Shown here: positions 1 through 10,491 of the stretch, one piece after another | Layout: each line of letters opens with the position of its first letter | Numbering within the stretch: position 1 is the stretch's first letter | IMG/VR virus record: IMGVR_UViG_2690316028_000010 | Direction: 5' to 3' (one strand) | DNA: 10,491 nt | From: a virus | Taxonomy: Duplodnaviria; Heunggongvirae; Uroviricota; Caudoviricetes | Notes under the pieces: generated by a model | The model's database searches: none | The model's input: the letters and a program-made list of their open reading frames with translations, nothing else | Told to the model about the DNA's origin: nothing | Made by a program: the position numbers and the translations under genes

Positions 1-780
1 TTATGGCCTTGTATTTCCTTTTCTTAACTTCTTTTCGCTCTTTTTTACAAGCTTAATTAACCACTCTGGCTCATCCGACAGTTCGGAGTAATAGCAGTAT
101 TCTGGTATTGCTTTCCAAAATGTTGTTATTGCATCAGCAAATTCAACAAACTGTTCTTCTGTTACATGCAGATCATCATGAGTAGGATTGATATGTCTGC
201 CGCATATACCAGTAGGATGAGGGTAATATTCTGGATGAGTTGATGATAGGAGGCGGTGAGAATTTCCATCACCATGTTTGTACACATTTACGACTAATGC
301 GCACGCTTTGAGCTTATCGCCATAATCAGTTTCATCTATCTTGAGACCGATCCACTCGAGCAGTTTCAACAGTTGATCAAAATTTAAATCCCAAACCATT
401 GGTGTAATGATCTCTTTATCACACCAATGAGACAATTCTCTGATCGTTTTTTCTCGTAACTTTTTATCGAACTGGTGATACATACCCGCAGTTACTGCCA
501 AAAGAACAGTTTCTTGCATTTCAATAAGTGACCAGACGTAGTTTACACCCTCCTCATATGCTTGCTCATAGGCTGCCATTGGGTCGTCAAAATCAGGATT
601 GAAATGCTCAGCGGTATACTCCAGAAACTGTTTCTCTCGCTCCTCCGCCTCTTGGGTCAGATCCCCAAACTGAGACAAAAGTCTCCGTCTTGCTTCCGAA
701 ACATAAAATTCGTGAGGTTCAAGAAAATAGGGCCGATCTACTTTAGCAAGCCAAAATGTCACGAAGTTATCTGATGACAT
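1..780 (-). CDS. hypothetical protein, 259 aa, AT-rich accessory gene; function unknown
   Basis: Complete ORF: ATG at 780-778 (plus 'cat'), stop TAA at 3-1. SD-like 'aagga' about 7 nt upstream on minus strand. Protein has mixed composition, not low-complexity. Local GC is clearly lower than the central block (by-eye count of the first 120 nt ~37%). No family recognised. Confidence 0.6.
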   Translation of the reverse strand: MSSDNFVTFWLAKVDRPYFLEPHEFYVSEARRRLLSQFGDLTQEAEEREKQFLEYTAEHFNPDFDDPMAAYEQAYEEGVNYVWSLIEMQETVLLAVTAGMYHQFDKKLREKTIRELSHWCDKEIITPMVWDLNFDQLLKLLEWIGLKIDETDYGDKLKACALVVNVYKHGDGNSHRLLSSTHPEYYPHPTGICGRHINPTHDDLHVTEEQFVEFADAITTFWKAIPEYCYYSELSDEPEWLIKLVKKSEKKLRKGNTRP

Positions 781-924
781 AACTTATCCTTGATAATTAT
801 TGTATGGATAGATTATCCAGAAATTTGCGAACTGAGTCGGTCATTTTTTTTTGTGTGCGCGTGATGTAATAAAGGTTCAGGAATATACTGTCAGTTTACT
901 GAAAAACTGGCAACAGAGGCGGTT
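781..924. promoter_or_regulatory. divergent intergenic region between the 259-aa gene (minus) and the 75-aa gene (plus); presumed to hold both promoters
   Basis: 144-bp AT-rich gap with a T9 run (843-851) between two outward-facing start codons. No confident -35/-10 pair could be assigned by eye. Confidence 0.3.
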
Positions 925-1152
925 ATGAGCGAGAGTTACGAGTTCTCAGCAGGTTGTTTTTTGAAGCTATCAATATCTTCAGGGTATTTCACTATCAAAA
1001 TTCAGGGAGATCTCCCCGCTCGTGCAGCTAGTGCCATCTTGGCAGATGATGTCGAGCAGGTTTTATCTCAACTAGACAAATGTTTTCAGCTGAGTAATAG
1101 GCAACGAGAAGGGATCGTTAAGTATCTTATGTCGAAGGGGATGCAGCCTTGA
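925..1152 (+). CDS. hypothetical small protein, 75 aa
   Basis: ATG at 925 preceded by SD 'agagg' (915-919). Stop TGA at 1150-1152 overlaps the next gene's ATG (TGATG), indicating translational coupling. Confidence 0.5.
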   Translation: MSESYEFSAGCFLKLSISSGYFTIKIQGDLPARAASAILADDVEQVLSQLDKCFQLSNRQREGIVKYLMSKGMQP

Positions 1153-1610
1153 TGACTTGGATCACCCAAACAGATAACTGGACAGGGATCGCGGCGTGGG
1201 CGGGTTTTGCTTTGTCCGTATTTCAATTACTAAAATCCAGAACATCGCTAAGGCTTTATCTCGGATGTGATCAGCACGAGGACAGGATATACGTTTCGAA
1301 CATAAGCGCACACGATGTAACGTTGAGTGCAGCCGGTGTGGTAACAGCCAGTGGACGCCTTAGAATGTTATCCGACGAATATTCGGACGAGAACATGATC
1401 ACACCGATGCTGCCAAAAAGATTGAAAGCACGAGACGAAATGGTCTTGAACGTGCCATTCATAAATAAGGCTCATCACAACAAAGTGCATCATCGTGGCG
1501 GGGTTTATATCAAAACATCTGACGGCAAGATGTTCAGTGATGTTTGTTGGATCAAACGCCAATGGTGGTGGTTACTGTCTGTAATACTACGAGACACAAA
1601 GCGATACTAA
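1152..1610 (+). CDS. hypothetical membrane-anchored protein, 152 aa from ATG 1152 (ORF track starts at TTG 1149)
   Basis: Start ATG 1152 overlaps upstream stop. One N-terminal hydrophobic stretch 'WTGIAAWAGFALSVFQLL' (~1182-1235) consistent with a single TM helix or signal anchor; remainder hydrophilic with a His-rich patch (HHNKVHH). Stop TAA 1608-1610. Confidence 0.5.
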   Translation: MTWITQTDNWTGIAAWAGFALSVFQLLKSRTSLRLYLGCDQHEDRIYVSNISAHDVTLSAAGVVTASGRLRMLSDEYSDENMITPMLPKRLKARDEMVLNVPFINKAHHNKVHHRGGVYIKTSDGKMFSDVCWIKRQWWWLLSVILRDTKRY

Positions 1611-1639
1611 GTTGATTGATAGTCCGAGGTGATGTTCTG

Positions 1640-1657
1640 CCCAGCGTAGTTGCTGGG
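1640..1657 (+). terminator. weak hairpin downstream of the 75/152-aa pair (6-bp stem cccagc/gctggg, 6-nt loop)
   Basis: Inverted repeat 1640-1645 / 1652-1657. No following U-tract, so at best a weak terminator or RNA structure. Confidence 0.2.
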
Positions 1658-1690
1658 TGATACACCTTCAATGATTCTTGTTAGTGTGTA

Positions 1691-1699
1691 GGGGGGGGG
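1691..1699 (+). repeat. homopolymeric G9 tract immediately upstream of the 72-aa ORF start
   Basis: Sequence 'gggggggggc' then ATG at 1701. Upstream in-frame stop TAG at 1689-1691 places the tract in the 5' UTR / ribosome-binding region, not inside coding sequence. Confidence 0.9.
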
Positions 1700-1700
1700 C

Positions 1701-1919
1701 ATGTTGGATTTTAAAGCTGAGTTTGTTGGCGGCAGCCATAGCGGCGAGGTTATATCACCGATGTCCGAGGTAGAACTTAATAAACTAGGGTATAGAGTCC
1801 ATTTACGTGGTGCCCCCTCTGGCGATGAAATGCCTGTACACGTTGTTGTACCTATTGAATGGTCAGCGGATGAAGCACACAGAGCCATAATGCAGCGCTG
1901 GGGTAAACGCAGACGGTAG
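1701..1919 (+). CDS. hypothetical small protein, 72 aa, basic C-terminus (WGKRRR)
   Basis: ATG 1701, stop TAG 1917-1919; G-rich SD-like sequence directly upstream. Composition more protein-like than the overlapping minus-strand ORF 1607-1930 (S/P/T-rich). No family recognised. Confidence 0.45.
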   Translation: MLDFKAEFVGGSHSGEVISPMSEVELNKLGYRVHLRGAPSGDEMPVHVVVPIEWSADEAHRAIMQRWGKRRR

Positions 1920-2301
1920 ATGTCGCGCATTTCTCTTAAACTGGCTGCTGTGTTTGGTGCTAATTATCCATGCAAAGTGGCCTAAGCTACGTGGAAGAAT
2001 GATCAGTTTCGCATTATTTGGTTCAAGGAGGGCTCCCCCACAGCCTCACTCTCTGAATGCAAAACAGCCCCACAATCCCACTGTTAAAAGTCCCAGCTTG
2101 AAAATTGCACGCTTATGGTTGCCCCTCCCTCAACTCTATAGCTCGCCCGCGCCCCCGTGTGCATGTGCGTGCCCGCGCGTCAGGGGTCGCTGAGAAACCC
2201 TAAGATTTTGCTCATCCGAGACAAGCATTACCTGCACCTGTAAAACGCGAAATTACCTCTCAAACACCACACATAAACCCACTTTGCATTGAGATCTGAC
2301 A
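1920..2301. other. ~380-bp GC-rich, apparently non-coding spacer with C-rich runs and an alternating purine-pyrimidine tract
   Basis: Only ORF here (1954-2193) is Pro/Ala/Arg-rich and low-complexity. Contains 'gcccgcgc' twice (2146-2153, 2171-2178) flanking 'gtgtgcatgtgcgtg' (2157-2171). Sits upstream of the capsid-like operon. Confidence 0.4.
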
Positions 2302-2649
2302 ATGACCTTACTGACACCTGAAAACGTGGCAGCGGCTAGGGCTGCCCGTAGCGCGAGGATTGAACACTGGAAAGCCAACGCCAGCCAGCTTAAGCAGGAC
2401 TTTGCTGACGAAGCGCACTGGCGGCGGCTCGCCTCACGCTTCGGCGTGCGTATGCCCTCGGCGTATGTTCCCGGCTCCGAGCTGCGATTGCTGCGCCGGG
2501 CGGCCAAACGCGCGGGCATCTCTGGTGCTGATATGCGCGATGCTTTTGGTGGGGGCGTTGCGCACCTGCACGAGCTTAATCCCCATTGGCCTGCCTTCGC
2601 GCTTATCGGCCTGATTCTTGAGATCGCGGCTGAAAAAGCTGCTGCCTGA
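2302..2649 (+). CDS. hypothetical protein, 115 aa, Ala/Arg-rich with hydrophobic C-terminus; first gene of the capsid-like operon
   Basis: ATG 2302, stop TGA 2647-2649. Codon third positions G/C-biased, consistent with real coding in this GC-rich block. Function not recognised; a small scaffold or packaging-associated protein are possibilities only. Confidence 0.5.
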   Translation: MTLLTPENVAAARAARSARIEHWKANASQLKQDFADEAHWRRLASRFGVRMPSAYVPGSELRLLRRAAKRAGISGADMRDAFGGGVAHLHELNPHWPAFALIGLILEIAAEKAAA

Positions 2650-2717
2650 TTCATCCCATTCTCTTTTCCCCTTTTCCATAAATCGCGCTGGCTAACGCTG
2701 GCGCGGGAGCTATTTCT

Positions 2718-3713
2718 ATGACTGACAATGTTTATACCCCTGACCAATTCCGCCCGCACTGGGGCGGTGTAGATGCTGACAACGACATTCACATTGAAGC
2801 GTATGACCGGGACGTTCAGACCCGCCTTGAGGCAAAGAGCGTGTTTCTCGCCGAGGGGCTGAGCACATACAAGCCGCTGAAAAACAGTAATCAGTATCGT
2901 GTAGACCGCCTGAGCGGAGATCTGGAGGTGAAGGGCAGAACCGCAGGGCAATCGCTGGAGCCTACCGCCGTTAAGTCGGACAAGCTGATTATCTCTGTGG
3001 ATACGCTGAGCTATATCCGCATCCCGATTGACTATCAAGACGACTGGACAGCGCCCACCTTTCGCGCAGAGCTGAGCCGCAACATGGGGACAGCCCATGC
3101 AAAGTTCTACGACGAAGCGCACACTATCCAGCTAATCAAAGCGACTGACTTTGTACCGCCGCCTACGTTGCAACCAACGTTTAACCCGCTGACGGATAAT
3201 GTTGTCTCGCTCGACCTGACAACGGGGAGCGAAGAGGATGCGGCTAACGAACTGGTTCACGCTATTAAAGCTGCTGTTAATCGATTCCTAACTGAAAAAG
3301 ATATTCCGGTGGCGGAGCTGTGCCTTCTCATCGACCCAGCTTGGTTCAGCATCCTGATGGAACATAAGAAGTTGATGAACGTCCGTTACAGCCGGGATAG
3401 TGGCAATGATTACGCATGGCGTCGCGTTGGCTATGTCGCTGGGGTGCGAGTTATTGAGCTGAACAGTTACCCGCAGGAAGCCATTACCGCGCATGAACTG
3501 GGCGCTGATTATGATGTGACCGCAGGGGAAGCGCTGACACGGGCGACGCTGTTCCGGCCTGCGTCTGTACTTGTGACAGTCGAAGCGCAGAGCGTTATCA
3601 ATCGCCAGTGGGATGATGAACGCGAAATGACAATGGTGATGGACTCATATCGCCTGTTCAATGTTGGGCTGCGCCGCCCTGACTGCGTTATAAATTTCCG
3701 ACAAGCTGCATAA
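2718..3713 (+). CDS. putative phage major capsid protein (HK97-fold / T7 gp10-like), 331 aa
   Basis: ATG 2718 with SD 'gggag' ~8 nt upstream; stop TAA 3711-3713. Several segments resemble T7-type capsid proteins from memory (e.g. 'IPVAELCLLIDPAWFSILM', C-terminal 'GLRRPDCVINFR'). Followed 17 nt later by an HNH gene, a common capsid-module neighbour. Similarity is by recall, not alignment. Confidence 0.5.
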   Translation: MTDNVYTPDQFRPHWGGVDADNDIHIEAYDRDVQTRLEAKSVFLAEGLSTYKPLKNSNQYRVDRLSGDLEVKGRTAGQSLEPTAVKSDKLIISVDTLSYIRIPIDYQDDWTAPTFRAELSRNMGTAHAKFYDEAHTIQLIKATDFVPPPTLQPTFNPLTDNVVSLDLTTGSEEDAANELVHAIKAAVNRFLTEKDIPVAELCLLIDPAWFSILMEHKKLMNVRYSRDSGNDYAWRRVGYVAGVRVIELNSYPQEAITAHELGADYDVTAGEALTRATLFRPASVLVTVEAQSVINRQWDDEREMTMVMDSYRLFNVGLRRPDCVINFRQAA

Positions 3714-3729
3714 CAAAAGGGGCCGAGCC

Positions 3730-4161
3730 ATGAATATTGATGCTTATGCCCCGGAGCTGTTGCGCTCTTTGTTTCGGTACGATGCGAAGACTGGCCGCCT
3801 GTTCCATGCAGTAGACCGGATCGGAGCCAACAAGCGGATTTACGCTAAAGCCGGGGAACTGGCCGACACGGTAACGGACAGCGCCGGATATAGGCGCGTA
3901 TCTGTCCGCATCAATGGCAAATCTCATGCGCTATACGCCCACCGTGTCGCCTTCATCATTGCTAATGACGGTATCCCTGCCGGGATGCAAATCGACCATA
4001 TCAACGCGGTACGCGATGACAACCGCCTTATCAATCTCCGCACGGTTACGCCACAAGAGAACCAGCACAATTACCGCAAAGCCAAGGGTTATAGCCACCA
4101 TGCCTGCTCTGGCAGATGGGAGGCTTACATTCGCGTTGGTGATCCACCGCGCGATAAATAA
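3730..4161 (+). CDS. HNH endonuclease (HNH_3-type, phage-associated), 143 aa
   Basis: ATG 3730 with SD 'aaagggg'; stop TAA 4159-4161. Clear HNH signature 'IDHINAVRDDNRLINLRTVTPQENQHN' and the N-terminal 'GYRRVSVRINGKSHALYAHRVAFI' pattern typical of this family. Confidence 0.85.
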   Translation: MNIDAYAPELLRSLFRYDAKTGRLFHAVDRIGANKRIYAKAGELADTVTDSAGYRRVSVRINGKSHALYAHRVAFIIANDGIPAGMQIDHINAVRDDNRLINLRTVTPQENQHNYRKAKGYSHHACSGRWEAYIRVGDPPRDK

Positions 4162-4200
4162 GCCGCAATCCGTGAGATAAATGGACACGGTGCGGCTTTT
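4161..4200. terminator. bidirectional intrinsic terminator candidate between convergent HNH and tape-measure genes
   Basis: Imperfect hairpin: 'agccgca' (4161-4167) pairs with 'tgcggct' (4191-4197), inner stem 'ccgtg'/'cacgg', followed by TTTT (4197-4200) on plus strand and an A/T-rich run on the other side. Lies in the 66-bp gap between the two converging stop codons. Confidence 0.5.
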
Positions 4201-4227
4201 CAGATACTGCAAAGGAATTACAGATTA

Positions 4228-6711
4228 TCAGTCGTAAGCAACCCGGCGCTTACGGGCAAGGATAGCTTCCAGTGCTCTTTCAATCTCAGGAATGGACAGC
4301 TTAAGCGCATTGGCCACATCCGGTGCTGGTGACTTGTTCTTGCCATCAATATAGATATTGTTAATGACGTTAATCCCGCCGCCTGCGCCTGCTGGTGAAT
4401 GAGAGTCCCGGCCTCTGGGTAAGGTAAGGTCGCCGCGCATATAGCGCTCTAATACGGGGGGTACTTTCGGCACATCCGGCACCATCATATCAGCCAGCCG
4501 CGAGGAGGCTTTCAGCGCCAGTGATGCAGACTGACCAATGCCAATCGCCGCCCCTTCTGCGATATTAGACCCGAAGCCCATAAATACACGGCTTGGCGAG
4601 TGAATCCCCAGCTTTTCCTTGAACCAGCCGCCGACACTGTCACCCATCTCAGTGACGGTATTCTTGAGAGACTCCCACTTGTTTTTGATACCGTTCACCA
4701 GTCCATCAATCAAGTGACCACCAAACTCAGTAAACTGGCCGGGAAGGTCGATGTTAAACCACTTCATGACCCCCGCAAACGCCTTGTAGAACAGCCCCAG
4801 CGGCGACCAGTTCAGGATTAGCTTACTGACACCAAGAACCCCGCCGTTAAAGGCTGTTTTCACTTCCTCCCACCGCTGCGAGAACCATCGGCTTATCGCG
4901 CCCCAGTTGCGGTAAATCAGGTACGCGCCCCCGGCGATGATGGTTATCGCAATGCCTATGGGGTTCATTAACAGCGCCCTGCCAAACCAGAGGAAAGCCT
5001 TTGCCACCACCATTACGCCTCTGAACAGTCCACCCGCCAGCGCTTTACCCAGCATTCCGGCTCCCTTCGCCACGGTACTGAATCCGGTAGCCAGCCAGCG
5101 CAGCTTTCCGCCGTCGCTCAGGGCGGTTTTGAGCAACAGCCAGTTAGTGCGCAGCAGTACGGCGTTTTTCCACAACCCGGCGAACGGTGATACCAGCAGA
5201 TTCAGGCCGAGTTTCAGCCCGACAGTGGCGATTTTCAGCCCCAGCAGTACGCCCACGGTTTTTGCCACACCCTGAACAATGCCGGGATGTTGCGCTATCC
5301 ATTGCCCGGTGGAATGAATCAGCGGAATCAGTTGCTGCGTCATTGACACGAACGAGGGAGACAGTTGACTGCCAAGGGTAATGGACAGTTCGCGGGTGCT
5401 GACCATCAGTGCTTTGGTCGCCTCCAGCGGCGATTTCAGTCGCTCCGTGTAGGAGGAGGCCAGCAGGTCTTTATCCGCCGCCTTAAGTGCGCCAGCCCTG
5501 ATTTCGCGGTATTTGTCCATGTTGGCGAGCATCGGACGGACAAACGCCATGACCTGCATATCGGCGAACATCTCACCCAGACCGAAATTCTTTGCCAGTT
5601 CCTGTAACGCAAGGTCGCGGGAGTTATCGTCCTTGATTTTCATTGCTTTCTTGAAGCCTGCCAGTGCTTCCGGGCTTTTGGCCTCCAGATACCTGCCCAT
5701 GACGCTTATCATGCCCTCAATGGGCGAGACGCCAGCAGATTTATAAGCCATGAGTGACCCCTGAAGGTCAATCCCGATATCGGCAAACTGTTTCTGCGTG
5801 TCGCGGGCAAAAATCTTGGTGAGGAAGTTACGGAAGTTGTTACCAGCCTCGTCAGATGACCCGGCACCAATTCGGGCAATCTGTAAACTCGCTCCGATTT
5901 CCGCCATCGCTTCTTTACCTTCGGCAATACCGCGCATCATCGGGGCAAGAGATGGCATCCATTTCACCTGGTCAGGTATTTCAAAAGACCCTTGGTCGCC
6001 TGCAAAGGCCATGATGTTCTGTACTTTGGCAAACTCTTTAGCGCTGCCATCCATCGAGTTTTTCCAGACGGCGGCAACCTTCGCCCATTCCGTCCCTGTG
6101 GTGCGTGTGGCAGTAGCGGCGCGGGCTATATTGGGCATGAAGCTGCCAATTTCGGACACACTGTCGATATTGTCACTGATAAGCGAGCCTACGGCGTCCT
6201 GTAAGTCGCTCTGGTACTGGTTGTACTTGAGCGACCATCCCCGGATTTGCTGCCCCAGACTGGCGCGGGTTTTATCGTCATATTTCGCCGTGATCGACAT
6301 ATCAATCATCTTGTCGTCGAACGTAGCCGACTGCTGAATCGCCGGGGAAACGAGGCTGTAAGCGGCTTTGGCCTGCGCCCACGTCTCAATTCCCTGTCCA
6401 TAAAGCGCCATCCGGTTAGCTCTCAGGGCATCGGTTGTGGCAGACGCTGCCGACAGGCGGGACTGCTGGCGGTTTAGTTGCTCCAGCGTTCTGCCTACCC
6501 GTTGCAGGTCATTGTTCAGGCGTGAGGCCACGCCTGAACCTACCTGACCGTAACGCTGCATGGCGCGTGACAGGCTGCTTTGTTGCTCGGTCAGGCGGCG
6601 TGACGTGTCGCCGAGAGAATCAAGCGCCCGCCGTGTGCCGCTGACGGCGGAACGGAAGCTGCTCCCGACAATACCGCCAATCATCACACCAACAGAAAAA
6701 TTATTGCTCAT
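4228..6711 (-). CDS. phage tail tape-measure protein, 827 aa
   Basis: ATG 6711-6709 with SD 'ggagtg'; stop at 4228. Helical N-terminal region, long central Gly/Ala/Leu-rich hydrophobic segment, and C-terminal 'GIHSPSRVF'-type motif that I recall from tape-measure proteins. Size is typical. Confidence 0.75.
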   Translation of the reverse strand: MSNNFSVGVMIGGIVGSSFRSAVSGTRRALDSLGDTSRRLTEQQSSLSRAMQRYGQVGSGVASRLNNDLQRVGRTLEQLNRQQSRLSAASATTDALRANRMALYGQGIETWAQAKAAYSLVSPAIQQSATFDDKMIDMSITAKYDDKTRASLGQQIRGWSLKYNQYQSDLQDAVGSLISDNIDSVSEIGSFMPNIARAATATRTTGTEWAKVAAVWKNSMDGSAKEFAKVQNIMAFAGDQGSFEIPDQVKWMPSLAPMMRGIAEGKEAMAEIGASLQIARIGAGSSDEAGNNFRNFLTKIFARDTQKQFADIGIDLQGSLMAYKSAGVSPIEGMISVMGRYLEAKSPEALAGFKKAMKIKDDNSRDLALQELAKNFGLGEMFADMQVMAFVRPMLANMDKYREIRAGALKAADKDLLASSYTERLKSPLEATKALMVSTRELSITLGSQLSPSFVSMTQQLIPLIHSTGQWIAQHPGIVQGVAKTVGVLLGLKIATVGLKLGLNLLVSPFAGLWKNAVLLRTNWLLLKTALSDGGKLRWLATGFSTVAKGAGMLGKALAGGLFRGVMVVAKAFLWFGRALLMNPIGIAITIIAGGAYLIYRNWGAISRWFSQRWEEVKTAFNGGVLGVSKLILNWSPLGLFYKAFAGVMKWFNIDLPGQFTEFGGHLIDGLVNGIKNKWESLKNTVTEMGDSVGGWFKEKLGIHSPSRVFMGFGSNIAEGAAIGIGQSASLALKASSRLADMMVPDVPKVPPVLERYMRGDLTLPRGRDSHSPAGAGGGINVINNIYIDGKNKSPAPDVANALKLSIPEIERALEAILARKRRVAYD

Positions 6712-6742
6712 GGTTCACTCCGGTTGAGTGGTTCGGTGGGCG

Positions 6743-7336
6743 TCATTCAGTCAGGGACAGGCCGCTGATTCCGGTAATCCCGGCAATTTCTTCGCTGACG
6801 GCTGCCAGTTCACTTTCAAGCCCGGTGCGTTCGCTGACCAGTGCCGCCACGGTCTTACGGCGCTCTGCCAGTGAGGGAAGTTTGTCATTACCCCACGTCA
6901 CGCTCTTATCCTTCTTAAGCGCTTCGGTCAGTCGGGTGGCGACCACATCCGGGAAGAAAAAGCAGAGCTTGCGCATTACCGCCATCCCGGTATCAGCCGG
7001 GGGGACGTTTCCTCCCAGCCCCACCAGACGGAACAGACCGGAAATATCGCCGTTCTCATTTTCCAGATTGCCCCAGCGTTCGGCGTTCCCTTCACCGCCG
7101 GAACCGTTGCAAAGAGCACGCTTGAATGACTGATATTCTTCCTGCCCGAATCGCTCAATATATTCAGGAATAAAGGAACAGTAATCATTAAGTGATAACG
7201 GCATATCCTGTAATGCGGTTATTTCGCCATTAATATCACCAATGCGACGAGAGAGCTTTTCTTTCTGCTCATTCAGGGAGGTAAGGTTATTTTTAACGGC
7301 GTTCAGTGCTTCAATGAGGGAAATAACAGGTTTCAT
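6743..7336 (-). CDS. hypothetical protein, 197 aa, coiled-coil-like N- and C-termini; possible scaffold-like or tail-assembly accessory protein
   Basis: ATG 7336-7334 lies 1 nt after the upstream gene's TAA (taaAATG) with SD 'ggag' inside the upstream gene's 3' end; stop TGA 6745-6743. Heptad-like ends; no slippery heptamer seen at the 3' end. Confidence 0.5.
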   Translation of the reverse strand: MKPVISLIEALNAVKNNLTSLNEQKEKLSRRIGDINGEITALQDMPLSLNDYCSFIPEYIERFGQEEYQSFKRALCNGSGGEGNAERWGNLENENGDISGLFRLVGLGGNVPPADTGMAVMRKLCFFFPDVVATRLTEALKKDKSVTWGNDKLPSLAERRKTVAALVSERTGLESELAAVSEEIAGITGISGLSLTE

Positions 7337-7337
7337 T

Positions 7338-7952
7338 TTAATAACTCCAGATAAAAGGTGTAGTGAGGGTGAGCGCTTCGGAATAGGAGACGTTGCAGGC
7401 TTCGCTTACATCCTTTATTAAAAGGTGCTGCGCTGCCCTCTGGCTGTCGGCTATGCCGTCGAGCTCTGAGAAATAAACGTGTGATTCATTGTGACCAAAA
7501 CAAACCGGGTAAGCGCTTTCCATAAACTCCACCTGCTCAAGCCCCTTTACGGCTGGCGGCTGTGCGCCGAGAAAACCAATATGGCGAAGATACCAGGCAC
7601 CAGTTCCGGCCGGGTTACGCGCTTCTCCCGGCCTGTAGAAAGCGGCAGACACTTTTTTATATAGACCTGACTGAACCATATCCAGCAACCTGTTATCAGG
7701 CTTAACCAGCGCGAAAAGTCTGCCGTTTTTACTTATCAGTCCGGTGGTTTCACCATAGGCGGGACTGTTACTGGCCGGATGCCCCAGGCACAGCGGCGCA
7801 CCATAACCCGCGCGATGATAGCCGTTATAGGCTGCTGCCATGTTGTCGATATCCTCGTCGGAAAAGCTGATTTCCTGCCCCGCCATCGCGGTATGTGTTC
7901 CCGCCCGGAATATCTCAATAGTTTTCCAGTTACCAATATTGATATCTGTCAT
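7338..7952 (-). CDS. putative GPO-family prohead protease / capsid scaffolding protein, N-terminal protease-like domain, 204 aa
   Basis: ATG 7952-7950; stop TAA 7340-7338. Recalled resemblance to P2 gpO N-terminus: 'FRAGTHTAMAGQEISFSDEDIDNMAAAY' vs gpO 'FRIGVEGDTCDGRVISAQDIQEMAETF', and 'LCLGH' vs gpO 'INLEH'. Shorter than P2 gpO (~284 aa). Confidence 0.55.
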   Translation of the reverse strand: MTDINIGNWKTIEIFRAGTHTAMAGQEISFSDEDIDNMAAAYNGYHRAGYGAPLCLGHPASNSPAYGETTGLISKNGRLFALVKPDNRLLDMVQSGLYKKVSAAFYRPGEARNPAGTGAWYLRHIGFLGAQPPAVKGLEQVEFMESAYPVCFGHNESHVYFSELDGIADSQRAAQHLLIKDVSEACNVSYSEALTLTTPFIWSY

Positions 7953-7953
7953 T

Positions 7954-8481
7954 TTATATTTGTCCCTGTTTCATATCGCGGCACTCTTTGTTTTTCTTAC
8001 GCTCGGCGGCAATAATCTGATAAATCCACTGAATAGAATTGCCATATTTCCTGGCTAATTCCCGATGAGTCATCCCTTGTTTGTAATCGGAAAATATCCT
8101 GGCATTTCTGTCGAAAGAGTTTCTGGCTGCGCCATTAGGTATATAGAAATTGTTACCTTTAAAGACCCTTCTAAGGTGTTCTGTAATTTCCGGGGAAATG
8201 ATTTCGGCCTGAGCCGAAAAGCAATGTATTGTAAGCAAAGCCTGCGCTATCACACCTGTAAGCTCATGCAGAAAAGATGTTGCTTTAGGGGCGTCTTCAC
8301 ATTCTATTGGCATGTAATTCTGGCAACCACCAAGATTATCAGATATATGCAAAACAATTTTATTTGCTGCACTACTTGCCTGAAGTTGTGAATAGCCCGC
8401 ATCAGTCAGAAAATCTTCAATCGCATCCCCCATTTCCCCCAGAGTGTCAGATGTTGCGTACAATCCCTCTCTTGTAATCAT
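7954..8481 (-). CDS. Mor/C-family transcriptional activator (Mu middle/late activator family), ~175 aa from ATG 8481
   Basis: C-terminal region matches the Mor pattern: 'NFYIPNGAARNSF' (cf. Mor 'QVYIPRG'), 'RIFSDYKQGMTHRELARKYGNSIQWIYQIIAAERKK' (HTH). ATG 8481-8479 has SD 'gagg' ~7 nt upstream; the ORF-track start at 8487 is a GTG too close to the SD. Stop TAA 7956-7954, 1 nt before the next gene's start. Confidence 0.75.
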   Translation of the reverse strand: MITREGLYATSDTLGEMGDAIEDFLTDAGYSQLQASSAANKIVLHISDNLGGCQNYMPIECEDAPKATSFLHELTGVIAQALLTIHCFSAQAEIISPEITEHLRRVFKGNNFYIPNGAARNSFDRNARIFSDYKQGMTHRELARKYGNSIQWIYQIIAAERKKNKECRDMKQGQI

Positions 8482-8509
8482 AATCACACCTCGGTAATGA
8501 TAAAGATGT

Positions 8510-8614
8510 GCGCTAAAAAGGCTTTATAAAGCTTTATGAGGCGTCTTTCTGGTGACAAATCAGCACATACACCATTAACGCTTTAAAATGGCTTACAGGC
8601 TTTTTTAGCGCGGG
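8510..8614. promoter_or_regulatory. regulatory region upstream of the Mor-like gene: 12-bp palindrome, tandem 'gctttat' and flanking 10-bp inverted repeats
   Basis: 'ataaagctttat' perfect palindrome at 8526-8537; 'gctttat' at 8521-8527 and 8531-8537. 'gcgctaaaaa' (8510-8519) is the inverse of 'tttttagcgc' (8602-8611). Promoter hexamers not confidently assigned. Confidence 0.35.
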
Positions 8615-8681
8615 TTACTAATGTGGATTAAGAATATGGTTTTGGGGCGGGGATGTTTTTTAATGTACTTTAGATATGAAG

Positions 8682-8703
8682 AAGCCCCTCAGAGGAGGGG
8701 CTT
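8682..8703. terminator. GC-rich hairpin (9-bp stem, 4-nt loop) immediately downstream of the 96-aa gene; candidate intrinsic terminator
   Basis: 'aagcccctc' (8682-8690) pairs perfectly with 'gaggggctt' (8695-8703), loop 'agag'. Sits 17 nt past the TAA at 8722-8720; the flanking run on the minus-strand transcript is only moderately U-rich. Confidence 0.45.
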
Positions 8704-8719
8704 GCGGGATTACGCCAGA

Positions 8720-9010
8720 TTATTGAGGTCGTCTGTCTTTCCTCAATCCATCAAGTAGCGCCATGGCATCAGTAACCAGTATGCCAGCAGCATCCGTAAC
8801 CATCGAAACATCAGAGGATGCACATGATTTATCCATACCTAATGTTGACGCAAAATCAAGTAGCTTACGAACTGCGTCAAGTCGATAGGTGGCAGAGTCG
8901 TAAATTAACTCCTGATTAGCATCAGTCTTTAAAAACATAATATCATCAGAGGCACCTTGCGAAAATGACGGCATCGCACGGAAAGTATTTTGAGTTTCAG
9001 CCTGTTTCAT
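8720..9010 (-). CDS. hypothetical protein, 96 aa
   Basis: ATG 9010-9008 overlaps the upstream gene's TGA (ATGA, coupling); SD 'ggagg' ~8 nt upstream; stop TAA 8722-8720. Confidence 0.5.
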   Translation of the reverse strand: MKQAETQNTFRAMPSFSQGASDDIMFLKTDANQELIYDSATYRLDAVRKLLDFASTLGMDKSCASSDVSMVTDAAGILVTDAMALLDGLRKDRRPQ

Positions 9011-9744
9011 TGTGCAGTCCTCCGGCTAATAGCGAATTTATTATAAACTTCATAACTGGCAGCATTCAGTCCGGGGTTGTATTTATCAGCCAGAGCACAG
9101 GCAATCATATGTTCAATAAATTTTGTTATTGCGTTAAGTTCAGTTTCGTTTGAATAACGCAATGCCACTTTGAGTAACTCGCGGCAATATTGTTTTTTAT
9201 TCCCTTCGATTTGGCCTGATTTTTTTATTCCTGCCTTTTTATCTGATTCATCCTCAACAGGCAAAGATGGGATATCCTCTTTATTGGTTAGCGTTCTTTC
9301 GCAAATAATATCTTCACCAGATTGAATTACGCGCTGCAACTCTCTGGCGCTCATACGAAGAATATCATCAAGCGTGTGGTCGTTATATGCCCCACCACTG
9401 GCAAGGAGATCCAGTGTCACTTCATCCAGCCGGGCAAGCAGGTTTAACTTCGTTTTGCCGATACTTGTTTTGGCAATTGCGGCTCGGGGGGTATTGGTTA
9501 CGCCAAATATCAGAGCAACCCGCATAGCATTATGGGCTTCACGTTTATTAATTCCCCCCACTGAAAGCGCCTTTGCAAATTCCTCATTTGTTTTTGTTGC
9601 TTCCTTAAGTGCCAGCATCTCTTTACCACGATGCACTAAAGTTTCAGTCGGGGTTGGCAAAAGGAGTACAGCATCTAAAATTTTTTCCCGAAGTACATCA
9701 ACTTGGCTTGCGATGCATGAACGGTTAGACTTGTTGATACCCAT
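9007..9744 (-). CDS. hypothetical protein, ~245 aa from ATG 9744 (ORF track begins at TTG 9765); candidate early/regulatory protein
   Basis: ATG 9744-9742 preceded by SD 'gagga' ~9 nt upstream; stop TGA 9009-9007. Acidic/Lys-rich linker mid-protein; no P-loop or other catalytic motif recognised. Divergent from the RHH gene. Confidence 0.5.
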   Translation of the reverse strand: MGINKSNRSCIASQVDVLREKILDAVLLLPTPTETLVHRGKEMLALKEATKTNEEFAKALSVGGINKREAHNAMRVALIFGVTNTPRAAIAKTSIGKTKLNLLARLDEVTLDLLASGGAYNDHTLDDILRMSARELQRVIQSGEDIICERTLTNKEDIPSLPVEDESDKKAGIKKSGQIEGNKKQYCRELLKVALRYSNETELNAITKFIEHMIACALADKYNPGLNAASYEVYNKFAISRRTAQ

Positions 9745-9774
9745 GATTGTTATCCTCAATAACAATGGTGGTCA

Positions 9775-9809
9775 GGCAGGATGTGATACTGAACCTATCA
9801 TGTCCTGCC
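9775..9809. promoter_or_regulatory. imperfect dyad symmetry (13-bp arms, 11/13 matching, 9-bp spacer) upstream of the 245-aa gene
   Basis: 'ggcaggatgtgat' (9775-9787) vs 'atcatgtcctgcc' (9797-9809). Could be an operator or a 5'-UTR hairpin of the minus-strand transcript. Confidence 0.3.
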
Positions 9810-9840
9810 GCTTGCGGTTTTACATCTACTTAATGTAATG

Positions 9841-9877
9841 TACGTACCATTGATTTCAATCTAAACAATGGTACGTA
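9841..9877. promoter_or_regulatory. perfect 12-bp inverted repeat with 13-bp spacer (candidate operator) overlapping the RHH gene start codon
   Basis: 'tacgtaccattg' (9841-9852) and its exact reverse complement 'caatggtacgta' (9866-9877). The right arm covers the ATG at 9868-9870. Located in the divergent promoter region. Confidence 0.55.
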
Positions 9878-10071
9878 TCATGTCAAGAGTAAAAGATAAC
9901 ACGCCTAAAAATTCCGCAGGGCGTTCCCCGACCTTCCAAATACGTATTACACCTGAACTTAGGGAACAGCTTGATAAAGAAGCTCTTAAAGATGGTGTAA
10001 GTTTGGCCAATTGGCTCAAAGGCATTGCACGAGATGAACTACGCAGGAGAGGTATTTCTCCAAAAGGGTAG
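9868..10071 (+). CDS. ribbon-helix-helix (Arc/MetJ-like) DNA-binding protein, 67 aa; putative repressor
   Basis: 'FQIRITPELREQLDKEALKDGVSLANWLKGIARDEL' fits the RHH beta-strand plus two helices (cf. Arc 'FNLRWPREVLDLVRKVAEENGRSVNSEIYQRVMESF'). ATG 9868 (alternative ATG 9880), both with weak SD; stop TAG 10069-10071. Confidence 0.6.
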   Translation: MVRIMSRVKDNTPKNSAGRSPTFQIRITPELREQLDKEALKDGVSLANWLKGIARDELRRRGISPKG

Positions 10072-10086
10072 GGCTAATCAGGTACA

Positions 10087-10476
10087 AAAAGCGAAAACGT
10101 TTTCGCTTTTATGGCTAAGAGAGCGGATGCACTCATTAAAGCGGACAGCGCTGTCCGCCTCCAATCAGCAAAAAAACAAGATGGTTCCTCCAAAACGCTC
10201 AACGTTGAGCGTTACGTTATTCCGACAAAAGCGCAGGCGCTTGCGCTTTTGAAAGGGATCAACACGGCTTTCAAACCGGACAACGTTGACCGCTTTAAGG
10301 AATCACTGTCGGCTGAGCAAAAACGGCAAGCGCTTGCCGTTTTAGATTCGCGGGGCGGTAAACGTTTACCGTTCTGTGTCAATTATGTTCAAAAGCGAAA
10401 GCGCTTTCGCATTTTCTCACCTAAAGCGGCAAACCTCCTCTGTCTTAGCTGGAAAAACGACATCGCTGTCGTTTTT
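10087..10476. repeat. array of eight hairpin-capable palindromes of one family (A-tract, CG-rich core, T-tract)
   Basis: P1 10087-10110 aaaagcgaaaac|gttttcgctttt (perfect, 24 bp); P2 10141-10158 gcggacagc|gctgtccgc (perfect); P3 10194-10213 aacgctcaac|gttgagcgtt (perfect); P4 10227-10250 (1 mismatch); P5 10320-10343 aaaacggcaagc|gcttgccgtttt (perfect); P6 10356-10371 cggtaaac|gtttaccg (perfect); P7 10391-10414 (1 mismatch); P8 10453-10476 aaaaacgaca-tcgc-tgtcgttttt. Symmetry kept while sequence differs between copies. Confidence 0.85.
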
Positions 10477-10491
10477 AATCCGAGGTTCTAA
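10111..10491 (+). CDS. ORF of 126 aa overlapping the palindrome array; coding status doubtful
   Basis: ATG 10111 directly after palindrome P1, stop TAA 10489-10491 at window end. Repeated peptide motifs (KAQALALL, KRQALAVL, KRKRFRIF) are direct consequences of the DNA palindromes, so the frame may be open by chance. Confidence 0.3.
   Translation: MAKRADALIKADSAVRLQSAKKQDGSSKTLNVERYVIPTKAQALALLKGINTAFKPDNVDRFKESLSAEQKRQALAVLDSRGGKRLPFCVNYVQKRKRFRIFSPKAANLLCLSWKNDIAVVFNPRF

Follow-up and report, generated by a model that had tools for sequence, protein, structure and literature searches.

What is the function of two small overlapping genes at positions 925–1610 of the IMG/VR virus record IMGVR_UViG_2690316028_000010 (Caudoviricetes)? 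The window, i.e. the whole stretch of 10,491 nucleotides (nt) analyzed here, carries at this place open reading frame (ORF) 1 and ORF2, which an earlier inspection of the letters (the original prediction) had described as a translationally coupled pair of one soluble and one membrane-anchored protein, resembling toxin-antitoxin (TA), superinfection-exclusion, and membrane-effector defense modules. In our comparison with other genomes, the pair was best explained as a module of exchangeable cargo on phage-related islands. Because ORF2 relatives are repeatedly adjacent to validated or candidate defense genes in two bacterial orders, we tentatively take an anti-phage role of the abortive-infection or exclusion type, as cargo of a phage-related chromosomal island, to be the most likely function. 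The pair and its signals are:

925–1152, plus strand: ORF1, ATG at 925 and TGA at 1150–1152, 75 amino acids (aa).
1149/1152–1610, plus strand: ORF2, TTG at 1149 or ATG at 1152, TAA at 1608–1610, 153 or 152 aa.
1149–1154, plus strand: stop/start overlap TTGATG, with the ORF1 TGA (1150–1152) inside.
915–919, plus strand: ribosome-binding site AGAGG of ORF1.
1135–1141, plus strand: AAGGGGA, Shine-Dalgarno-like, within the 3′ end of ORF1 and 8 nt 5′ of the TTG at 1149.

The suggestion of a defense role derives from the surroundings of ORF2 relatives elsewhere. In Ewingella, a PD-T7-4/RAZR homolog (PADLOC E = 2e-94; DUF4145) is located directly 5′ of an ORF2 relative on the same strand, and a remote ORF2 homolog lies 45 nt 3′ of a protein with an AbiTii domain (5e-43), also on the same strand. 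PD-T7-4 is an experimentally validated defense gene (10.1101/2022.05.12.491691; PMC13017515), later characterized as RAZR, a stand-alone zinc-finger HEPN RNase (PMC13017515), and AbiTii homologs are often HEPN-fused (PMC3710099). Within 5 kb of ORF2 relatives we also detected (i) bSEFIR (TIR-SEFIR, 3e-103); (ii) a ThsA-like SIR2 protein; (iii) AriA/GajA-like ATPases; (iv) nSTAND6; and (v) a KAP NTPase. Neighbors of remote members further included SIR2_2 with AAA_15/21, an nSTAND6-metallophosphatase, P2-like tail genes, and a HigB-like TA pair. Stand-alone relatives were found in Pseudomonas prophage hotspots, and the other remote homologs examined likewise stood alone, in prophage or defense hotspots. 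The earlier proposal of a defense module was therefore supported by neighborhood (PD-T7-4/RAZR, AbiTii, bSEFIR, SIR2/ThsA-like, AriA/GajA-like, STAND, and KAP) and not by homology to any defense family.

Such an argument presupposes that both genes are real and belong together. ORF1 homologs (38–58% identity) were located directly 5′ of ORF2 homologs at 71–81% identity. Paired loci numbered at least 16, with five or more sequence types, and came from Escherichia, Citrobacter, Klebsiella, Raoultella, Serratia, metagenomes, and an IMG/VR contig; outside E. coli, pairs were present in Citrobacter, Raoultella, Klebsiella, Serratia, one IMG/VR contig, and ten metagenome contigs. When the ORF1 family served as the query, 11 loci were recovered, all 11 with ORF2 immediately 3′, and among all loci recovered ORF1 was never found without ORF2. 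Co-occurrence in other genomes, which had been named as a check on the pair, was thus conserved wherever an ORF1 homolog was found. For ORF1, the proportion of nonsynonymous differences (pN) was 0.27–0.40 versus a synonymous proportion (pS) of 0.79–0.91, with dN/dS = 0.3–0.5 where synonymous sites were unsaturated. Both are thus real genes, under purifying selection and with reading frames intact across genera.

Current annotation misses both genes. In E. coli NZ_LR536431.1 (L001, 20145–20372), RefSeq leaves ORF1 unannotated and lists ORF2 as hypothetical, and in E2348/69, the reference enteropathogenic E. coli (L002, 9989–10459), an intact 156-aa ORF2 homolog is unannotated. Because of these omissions, such modules are invisible to catalogue-based surveys. 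The same omissions, together with the cassette-like behavior of ORF2 and its breakpoints (see below), could be taken to mean that the two genes are merely adjacent without a functional link, or that one is the remainder of a gene in decay. We hold this to be highly improbable in view of the selection and intact frames of both genes across genera, the restriction of ORF1 to loci with ORF2, and the retention of the overlap and the internal ribosome-binding site even at 38% protein identity.

The TGATG that had suggested translational coupling is present at 1150–1154, and coupling was confirmed by an overlap kept across genera. In all paired loci, ORF2 starts with a TTG or GTG matching 1149, with a 4-nt overlap with the ORF1 stop (TTGA/GTGA), and an (A/G)GGGAT(G/C)G ribosome-binding site is kept in every paired locus 8–10 nt 5′ of the ORF2 start. 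Since related loci all begin ORF2 at the TTG/GTG equivalent to 1149, the conserved coupling signal is TTGA, and the ATG at 1152 is peculiar to the E. coli copy. A fixed stoichiometry, as originally deduced, is an overstatement given the overlap with a TTG start; the membrane protein ORF2 is more likely made in smaller amounts than ORF1.

This arrangement recalls an addiction system, in which ORF2 would be a membrane-active toxin and ORF1 a labile, more abundant antitoxin that together stabilize the island, any effect on phages being secondary. Bicistronic order with tight overlap, a criterion of type II TA systems, was found in all paired loci, in which the 4-nt overlap is conserved along with the weak TTG that starts the second gene. 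A small acidic protein is encoded first and a basic one second (isoelectric points, pI, 6.1 versus 9.5), ORF1 evolves much faster than ORF2 in shared loci (38–58% versus 71–81% identity), and ORF1 is never alone. A second criterion, that the toxin gene is not kept without its antitoxin gene, does not hold for ORF2, and overall we consider the TA reading unlikely.

The dependence is one-way: ORF1 needs ORF2, whereas ORF2 relatives exist without ORF1. Copies lacking ORF1 were found in Kosakonia arachidis (97% identical) and in E2348/69 (94% identical). In both, DNA homology to the window starts exactly at 1149, the ORF2 start codon, and a 182-aa protein with an RNITVH motif is encoded upstream of ORF2 in place of ORF1. 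ORF2 is cassette-like, with recombination breakpoints at its own ends. One metagenome contig carried an ORF2 relative without ORF1 amid KAP NTPase and DUF6685 genes, and at the Pseudomonas loci, where we looked for small upstream partner ORFs, none was convincing. In an E. coli genome (GCA_045581885.1; L027, 5001–6885), a DDE_Tnp_1 (IS5-like) insertion sequence (IS) splits ORF1 after about residue 35, and ORF2 and a downstream 72-aa ORF are intact behind it. A strict TA reading is weakened by the ORF1-less copies in Kosakonia and E2348/69, by the remote homologs that stand alone, and by the IS-split ORF1, although in the last case the carrier might have survived through a polar effect of the insertion on ORF2 expression.

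The variety of genes upstream of ORF2 could also indicate a reusable membrane output or docking module. The ORF2 family might then be a self-contained immunity membrane module, a cassette bounded by breakpoints at its start and stop codons and docking behind interchangeable partners, namely (i) the 75-aa protein; (ii) the PD-T7-4/RAZR homolog of Ewingella; (iii) the AbiTii-domain protein; and (iv) the 182-aa Rx4H protein of E2348/69 and Kosakonia. ORF2 would either fasten sensors or nucleases of the cytosol at the membrane or serve as a shared membrane-disrupting output. We regard this as doubtful. A related idea, that the 75-aa protein is a detached domain of the alternative partners, was rejected at hhalign probabilities of 0.1–0.2% against the 182-aa, AbiTii, and RAZR-like proteins. 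The partner proteins had no match in NCBIfam. For the 182-aa protein, Pfam and PADLOC likewise returned no match. The Kosakonia island also carries a DUF6896 protein with an RNNVFH motif, and the two (L002, 9371–9919; L003, 7368–7916 and 9368–10378) may be uncatalogued HEPN-like proteins.

Returning to the pair as a candidate anti-phage module, the proteins themselves offered few leads from homology. The 28 close ORF2 relatives (65–93% identity) are all from Enterobacterales. Among 1.84 billion representative proteins, searching with a profile identified 24 members, mostly of 142–179 aa, with 22–36% identity to the window ORF2, and a second database search (5.8 billion proteins) yielded 57 clusters, Pseudomonas proteins included, with no Pfam domain and no informative name. 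Invariant or nearly invariant family positions are N50, S52, H54, T57, G62, G68, R94, G125, R136, and W139; among these the motif N50-x-S52-x-H54 is invariant and R94 nearly so. No match for ORF1 or ORF2 was found in Pfam, PHROGs, PADLOC, or NCBIfam, and sequence-profile searches of the PDB gave nothing significant for the families of ORF1, ORF2, and the divergent 259-aa gene next to the pair, or for the 182-aa protein. PADLOC-DB 2.0 (including the PD-T4/T7/lambda, Abi, and PDC models) returned no match at E ≤ 0.1 for the 75-, 152-, and 259-aa proteins or two remote ORF2 homologs. ORF2 homologs did not match the AbiTi/AbiTii models, the AbiTii domain being confined to the upstream neighbor of the remote homolog. 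ORF2 thus represents an unclassified family, and neither protein belongs to any described family of the libraries searched, in agreement with the earlier remark that neither was recognizable.

For ORF2, an AlphaFold2 model based on 36 aligned sequences (pLDDT 75, pTM 0.63) showed a helix at residues 3–28, an eight-strand beta-sandwich, and a helix at residues 133–151, and the following parts were assigned:

1179–1232 (residues ~10–27): anchor helix, followed by K/R-x-R-T-S.
1248–1538 (residues 33–129): Ig-like beta-sandwich.
Residues 95–113: His-rich loop, low confidence.
1548–1604 (residues 133–151): Trp-rich basic helix.

ORF2 is a basic protein (pI 9.5). Across the family, the anchor segment has a median Kyte-Doolittle value of 1.89 and reaches transmembrane grade (≥1.6) in 24 of 36 members. 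Lysine and arginine residues average 0.56 before and 2.0 after this segment, which predicts an N-out/C-in orientation with a cytoplasmic beta-sandwich. The C-terminal RQWWWLLSVILR helix is too short for a membrane span in the model and looks interfacial. Family N termini are unconserved and hold no motif of the G/A-F/L-x-x-x-E type, and no pilus genes were nearby; in the structural comparison, the root-mean-square deviation (rmsd) was 9.8 Å. Foldseek against BFVD matched uncharacterized phage proteins only.

ORF1 is slightly acidic (pI 6.1) and without a hydrophobic segment (highest 19-residue Kyte-Doolittle mean 0.91); neither a signal peptide nor a lipobox was found in its sequence. Its single-sequence model (pLDDT 71) comprised a sheet of three strands and, after it, two helices; no informative structural neighbor was found. 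No antitoxin DNA-binding fold was recognized in this model, nor was there a sequence match in Pfam, NCBIfam, or the PDB. The description of a soluble protein paired with a membrane-anchored one was hence upheld for ORF1, and for ORF2 it applies to the family but less firmly to the window copy (1.15 versus the median of 1.89).

A lysis function, which the original prediction had ranked as less likely because of the C-terminal domain, is indeed unlikely for this pair. No endolysin or holin was present among the called neighbors of more than 25 loci, and a beta-sandwich placed in the cytoplasm by the positive-inside rule does not suit a spanin-like protein.

If the pair is an anti-phage module, ORF2 would be its working part and would cross the inner membrane once, N terminus out and C terminus in. 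The Ig-like sandwich of ORF2 would lie in the cytoplasm, pressed to the membrane by the Trp-rich amphipathic C-terminal helix, and the conserved polar patch of N50, S52, H54, and R94 is the likely binding site. Upon a phage cue, ORF2 might oligomerize or rearrange, so that the membrane is disturbed or a membrane-linked step of infection is blocked. ORF1 would be a cytosolic accessory subunit sharing an mRNA with ORF2. Because the ORF1 stop overlaps a weak TTG start, translation of ORF2 would depend on that of ORF1 and probably be lower. We propose that ORF1 binds the beta-sandwich and either keeps ORF2 quiet or confers specificity for the trigger.

Several observations weigh against this proposal. 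In the PADLOC search neither protein had homology to any validated defense protein, and the neighborhood evidence is indirect, since cargo regions also hold non-defense genes. Because PD-T7-4/RAZR works alone (PMC13017515), ORF2 relatives may be next to it as residents of the same hotspot and not as partners. The anchor of the window copy is moderately hydrophobic (Kyte-Doolittle 1.15; Wimley-White octanol −6.3 kcal/mol). The ORF2 family is also rare. Matches to this stretch occurred in 5 of 5426 complete E. coli genomes, four of which, all of the E2348/69 lineage, match ORF2 alone. The plasmid collection contained a single weak Pseudomonas match for ORF2, and tblastn against the phage record collection gave no match for the 152-aa or the 259-aa protein. 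Should the pair protect, it would add to the island-borne defense repertoire a very small, enzyme-free two-protein system and a new protein family in which a membrane anchor is joined to an Ig-like sandwich and a Trp-rich helix. With no phage phenotype, it would be one more conserved hypothetical cargo pair.

The islands themselves bear on the choice between defense and other kinds of cargo. Window positions 1–2231 are 100% identical to E. coli NZ_LR536431.1. In that genome, this segment occupies one end of a ~13.6-kb island, ~430 nt from tRNA-Gly(CCC), and a tyrosine integrase is encoded at the far end. This island encodes an invertase-like recombinase, a DEAD/DEAH helicase, a single major-head-like protein (phrog_267), an HNH protein, and an endonuclease VII-like protein, and does not obviously fit the gene sets of P4-like, PICI, cf-PICI, or PLE elements. 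It (L001, 18717–32395) and the related islands L007–L010 are without portal, protease, and terminase genes, and most of their small genes have no PHROG match. Throughout, the tRNA-proximal cargo end is occupied, next to tRNA-Gly(CCC) in E. coli, Klebsiella, and Serratia, tRNA-Thr in Raoultella, and tRNA-Leu in E2348/69.

Somewhat unlikely in our assessment is that the pair serves non-defense cargo or an island life-cycle function (helper-phage handling at the membrane, transfer timing), or acts as a membrane factor for host fitness. Such a role would be consistent with its invariable location within integrase-bearing, phage-related islands or prophages, and with the inheritance of ORF2 and the 72-aa ORF as one block beside island core genes in E. 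coli and Kosakonia. The Ig-like sandwich is moreover a generic fold with many binding roles, and BFVD holds similarly shaped, uncharacterized small phage proteins. However, the module moves among unrelated island backbones, attachment sites, and Pseudomonas P2-like prophage hotspots, which suits exchangeable cargo better than a core function, and its nearest neighbors are more often defense genes than structural or replication genes.

Within the window, the pair is flanked by the following features:

1–780, minus strand: 259-aa gene, phrog_19541, function unknown, a frequent divergent neighbor of the pair.
781–924, no strand: intergenic control region, a 144-nt AT-rich spacer from which the 259-aa gene and ORF1 diverge.
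774–803: weak sigma-70-like site, promoter position putative.
1701–1919, plus strand: 72-aa ORF, with a run of nine G (1691–1699) just 5′; module membership uncertain.

GC content is 0.39–0.48 across 1–1800 and 0.52–0.59 beyond, and this profile and the ORF list corroborate the initial placement of the pair in AT-rich cargo, divergent from the 259-aa gene. Promoter and terminator scans of the region performed no better than on shuffled sequence, the repeats of the intergenic region are short and unremarkable, and an Rfam scan of 700–2400 returned no matches.

Most loci with the pair also have the 259-aa gene, which is a separate module. As an obligate third component it was rejected: it occurs alone on two IMG/VR contigs, and in Serratia the pair is present without it. 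The sole match of its product, which is 70–74% conserved across genera, was phrog_19541 (E = 2e-76). In E2348/69 and Kosakonia, the 182-aa protein replaces it. The invariant NVYKHGDG of the 259-aa protein aligns weakly and locally (E = 0.075) with RNITVHADW (Rx4H, HEPN-like) of the 182-aa protein. We dropped the idea that the two are HEPN relatives, keeping this local alignment as a lead only. The 72-aa ORF is unannotated in RefSeq and is probably a real gene, because it is conserved 3′ of ORF2 in Kosakonia (94% identical) and in a metagenome contig (L033; 42% identical).

The window as a whole is a mosaic. Positions 1–2231 and 2229–4141 are each 100% identical to separated parts of the tRNA-Gly island of NZ_LR536431.1, and the 5.9 kb between those parts (invertase-like recombinase, DEAD helicase, and six small genes) are missing from the window. 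The remainder, 4140–10491 (compared with L028, 9000–16700), is a mini Mu-like element with genes for a tape measure protein (4228–6711), a 197-aa protein, a protease/scaffold-like 204-aa protein, Mor (7954–8487), and a YlcI/HicB-like 67-aa protein. The element starts with TGATCCACCGCGCGATAAA right against the island HNH gene, truncating HNH to 143 aa from 175 aa, and in strain AW1.7 the ynbC gene is interrupted by a copy of 93% identity. Matches to parts of the window, mostly to this element, occurred in 193 of 5426 E. coli genomes.

How does the pair compare with known systems? A small coupled operon in defense-rich cargo is a well-known kind of thing; defense systems in P2/P4 hotspots were reportedly described by Rousset and colleagues in 2022. 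Phage satellites are known to carry defense systems (PMC10085698), and the pair resembles the two-gene defense cargo of satellites and prophage hotspots in being a small operon in AT-rich, attachment-site-proximal variable cargo of an integrase-bearing, phage-related island, in its exchange between island backbones, and in the validated defense genes around its relatives elsewhere. It differs in having no match to a PADLOC 2.0 model and no enzymatic domain.

ORF2 also recalls effectors of the Cap15 type. CBASS Cap15 is an abortive-infection membrane effector in which N-terminal helices precede a small domain rich in beta-structure. ORF2 is like such effectors in its size class (~150–200 aa), N-terminal helix, compact all-beta domain, and conserved polar patch; it differs in having one helix instead of two, an Ig-like sandwich instead of a barrel, and an extra C-terminal amphipathic helix. 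No cyclase, CRISPR, or other signal-producing genes were found near the pair or ORF2 relatives at any locus examined.

With type II TA operons, the pair shares an acidic small protein encoded 5′ and a basic one 3′, the 4-nt overlap, and a faster-evolving first gene. Unlike in those operons, the second gene persists alone, no antitoxin DNA-binding fold was recognized, and a membrane-anchored beta-sandwich is not a known toxin fold. Finally, the gene directly 5′ of ORF2 relatives in other genomes, on the same strand, can be PD-T7-4/RAZR or an AbiTii-type, HEPN-associated Abi gene. ORF1 and ORF2 show no homology to either, and RAZR is reported to act alone (PMC13017515); in the window, the 75-aa protein occupies their place.
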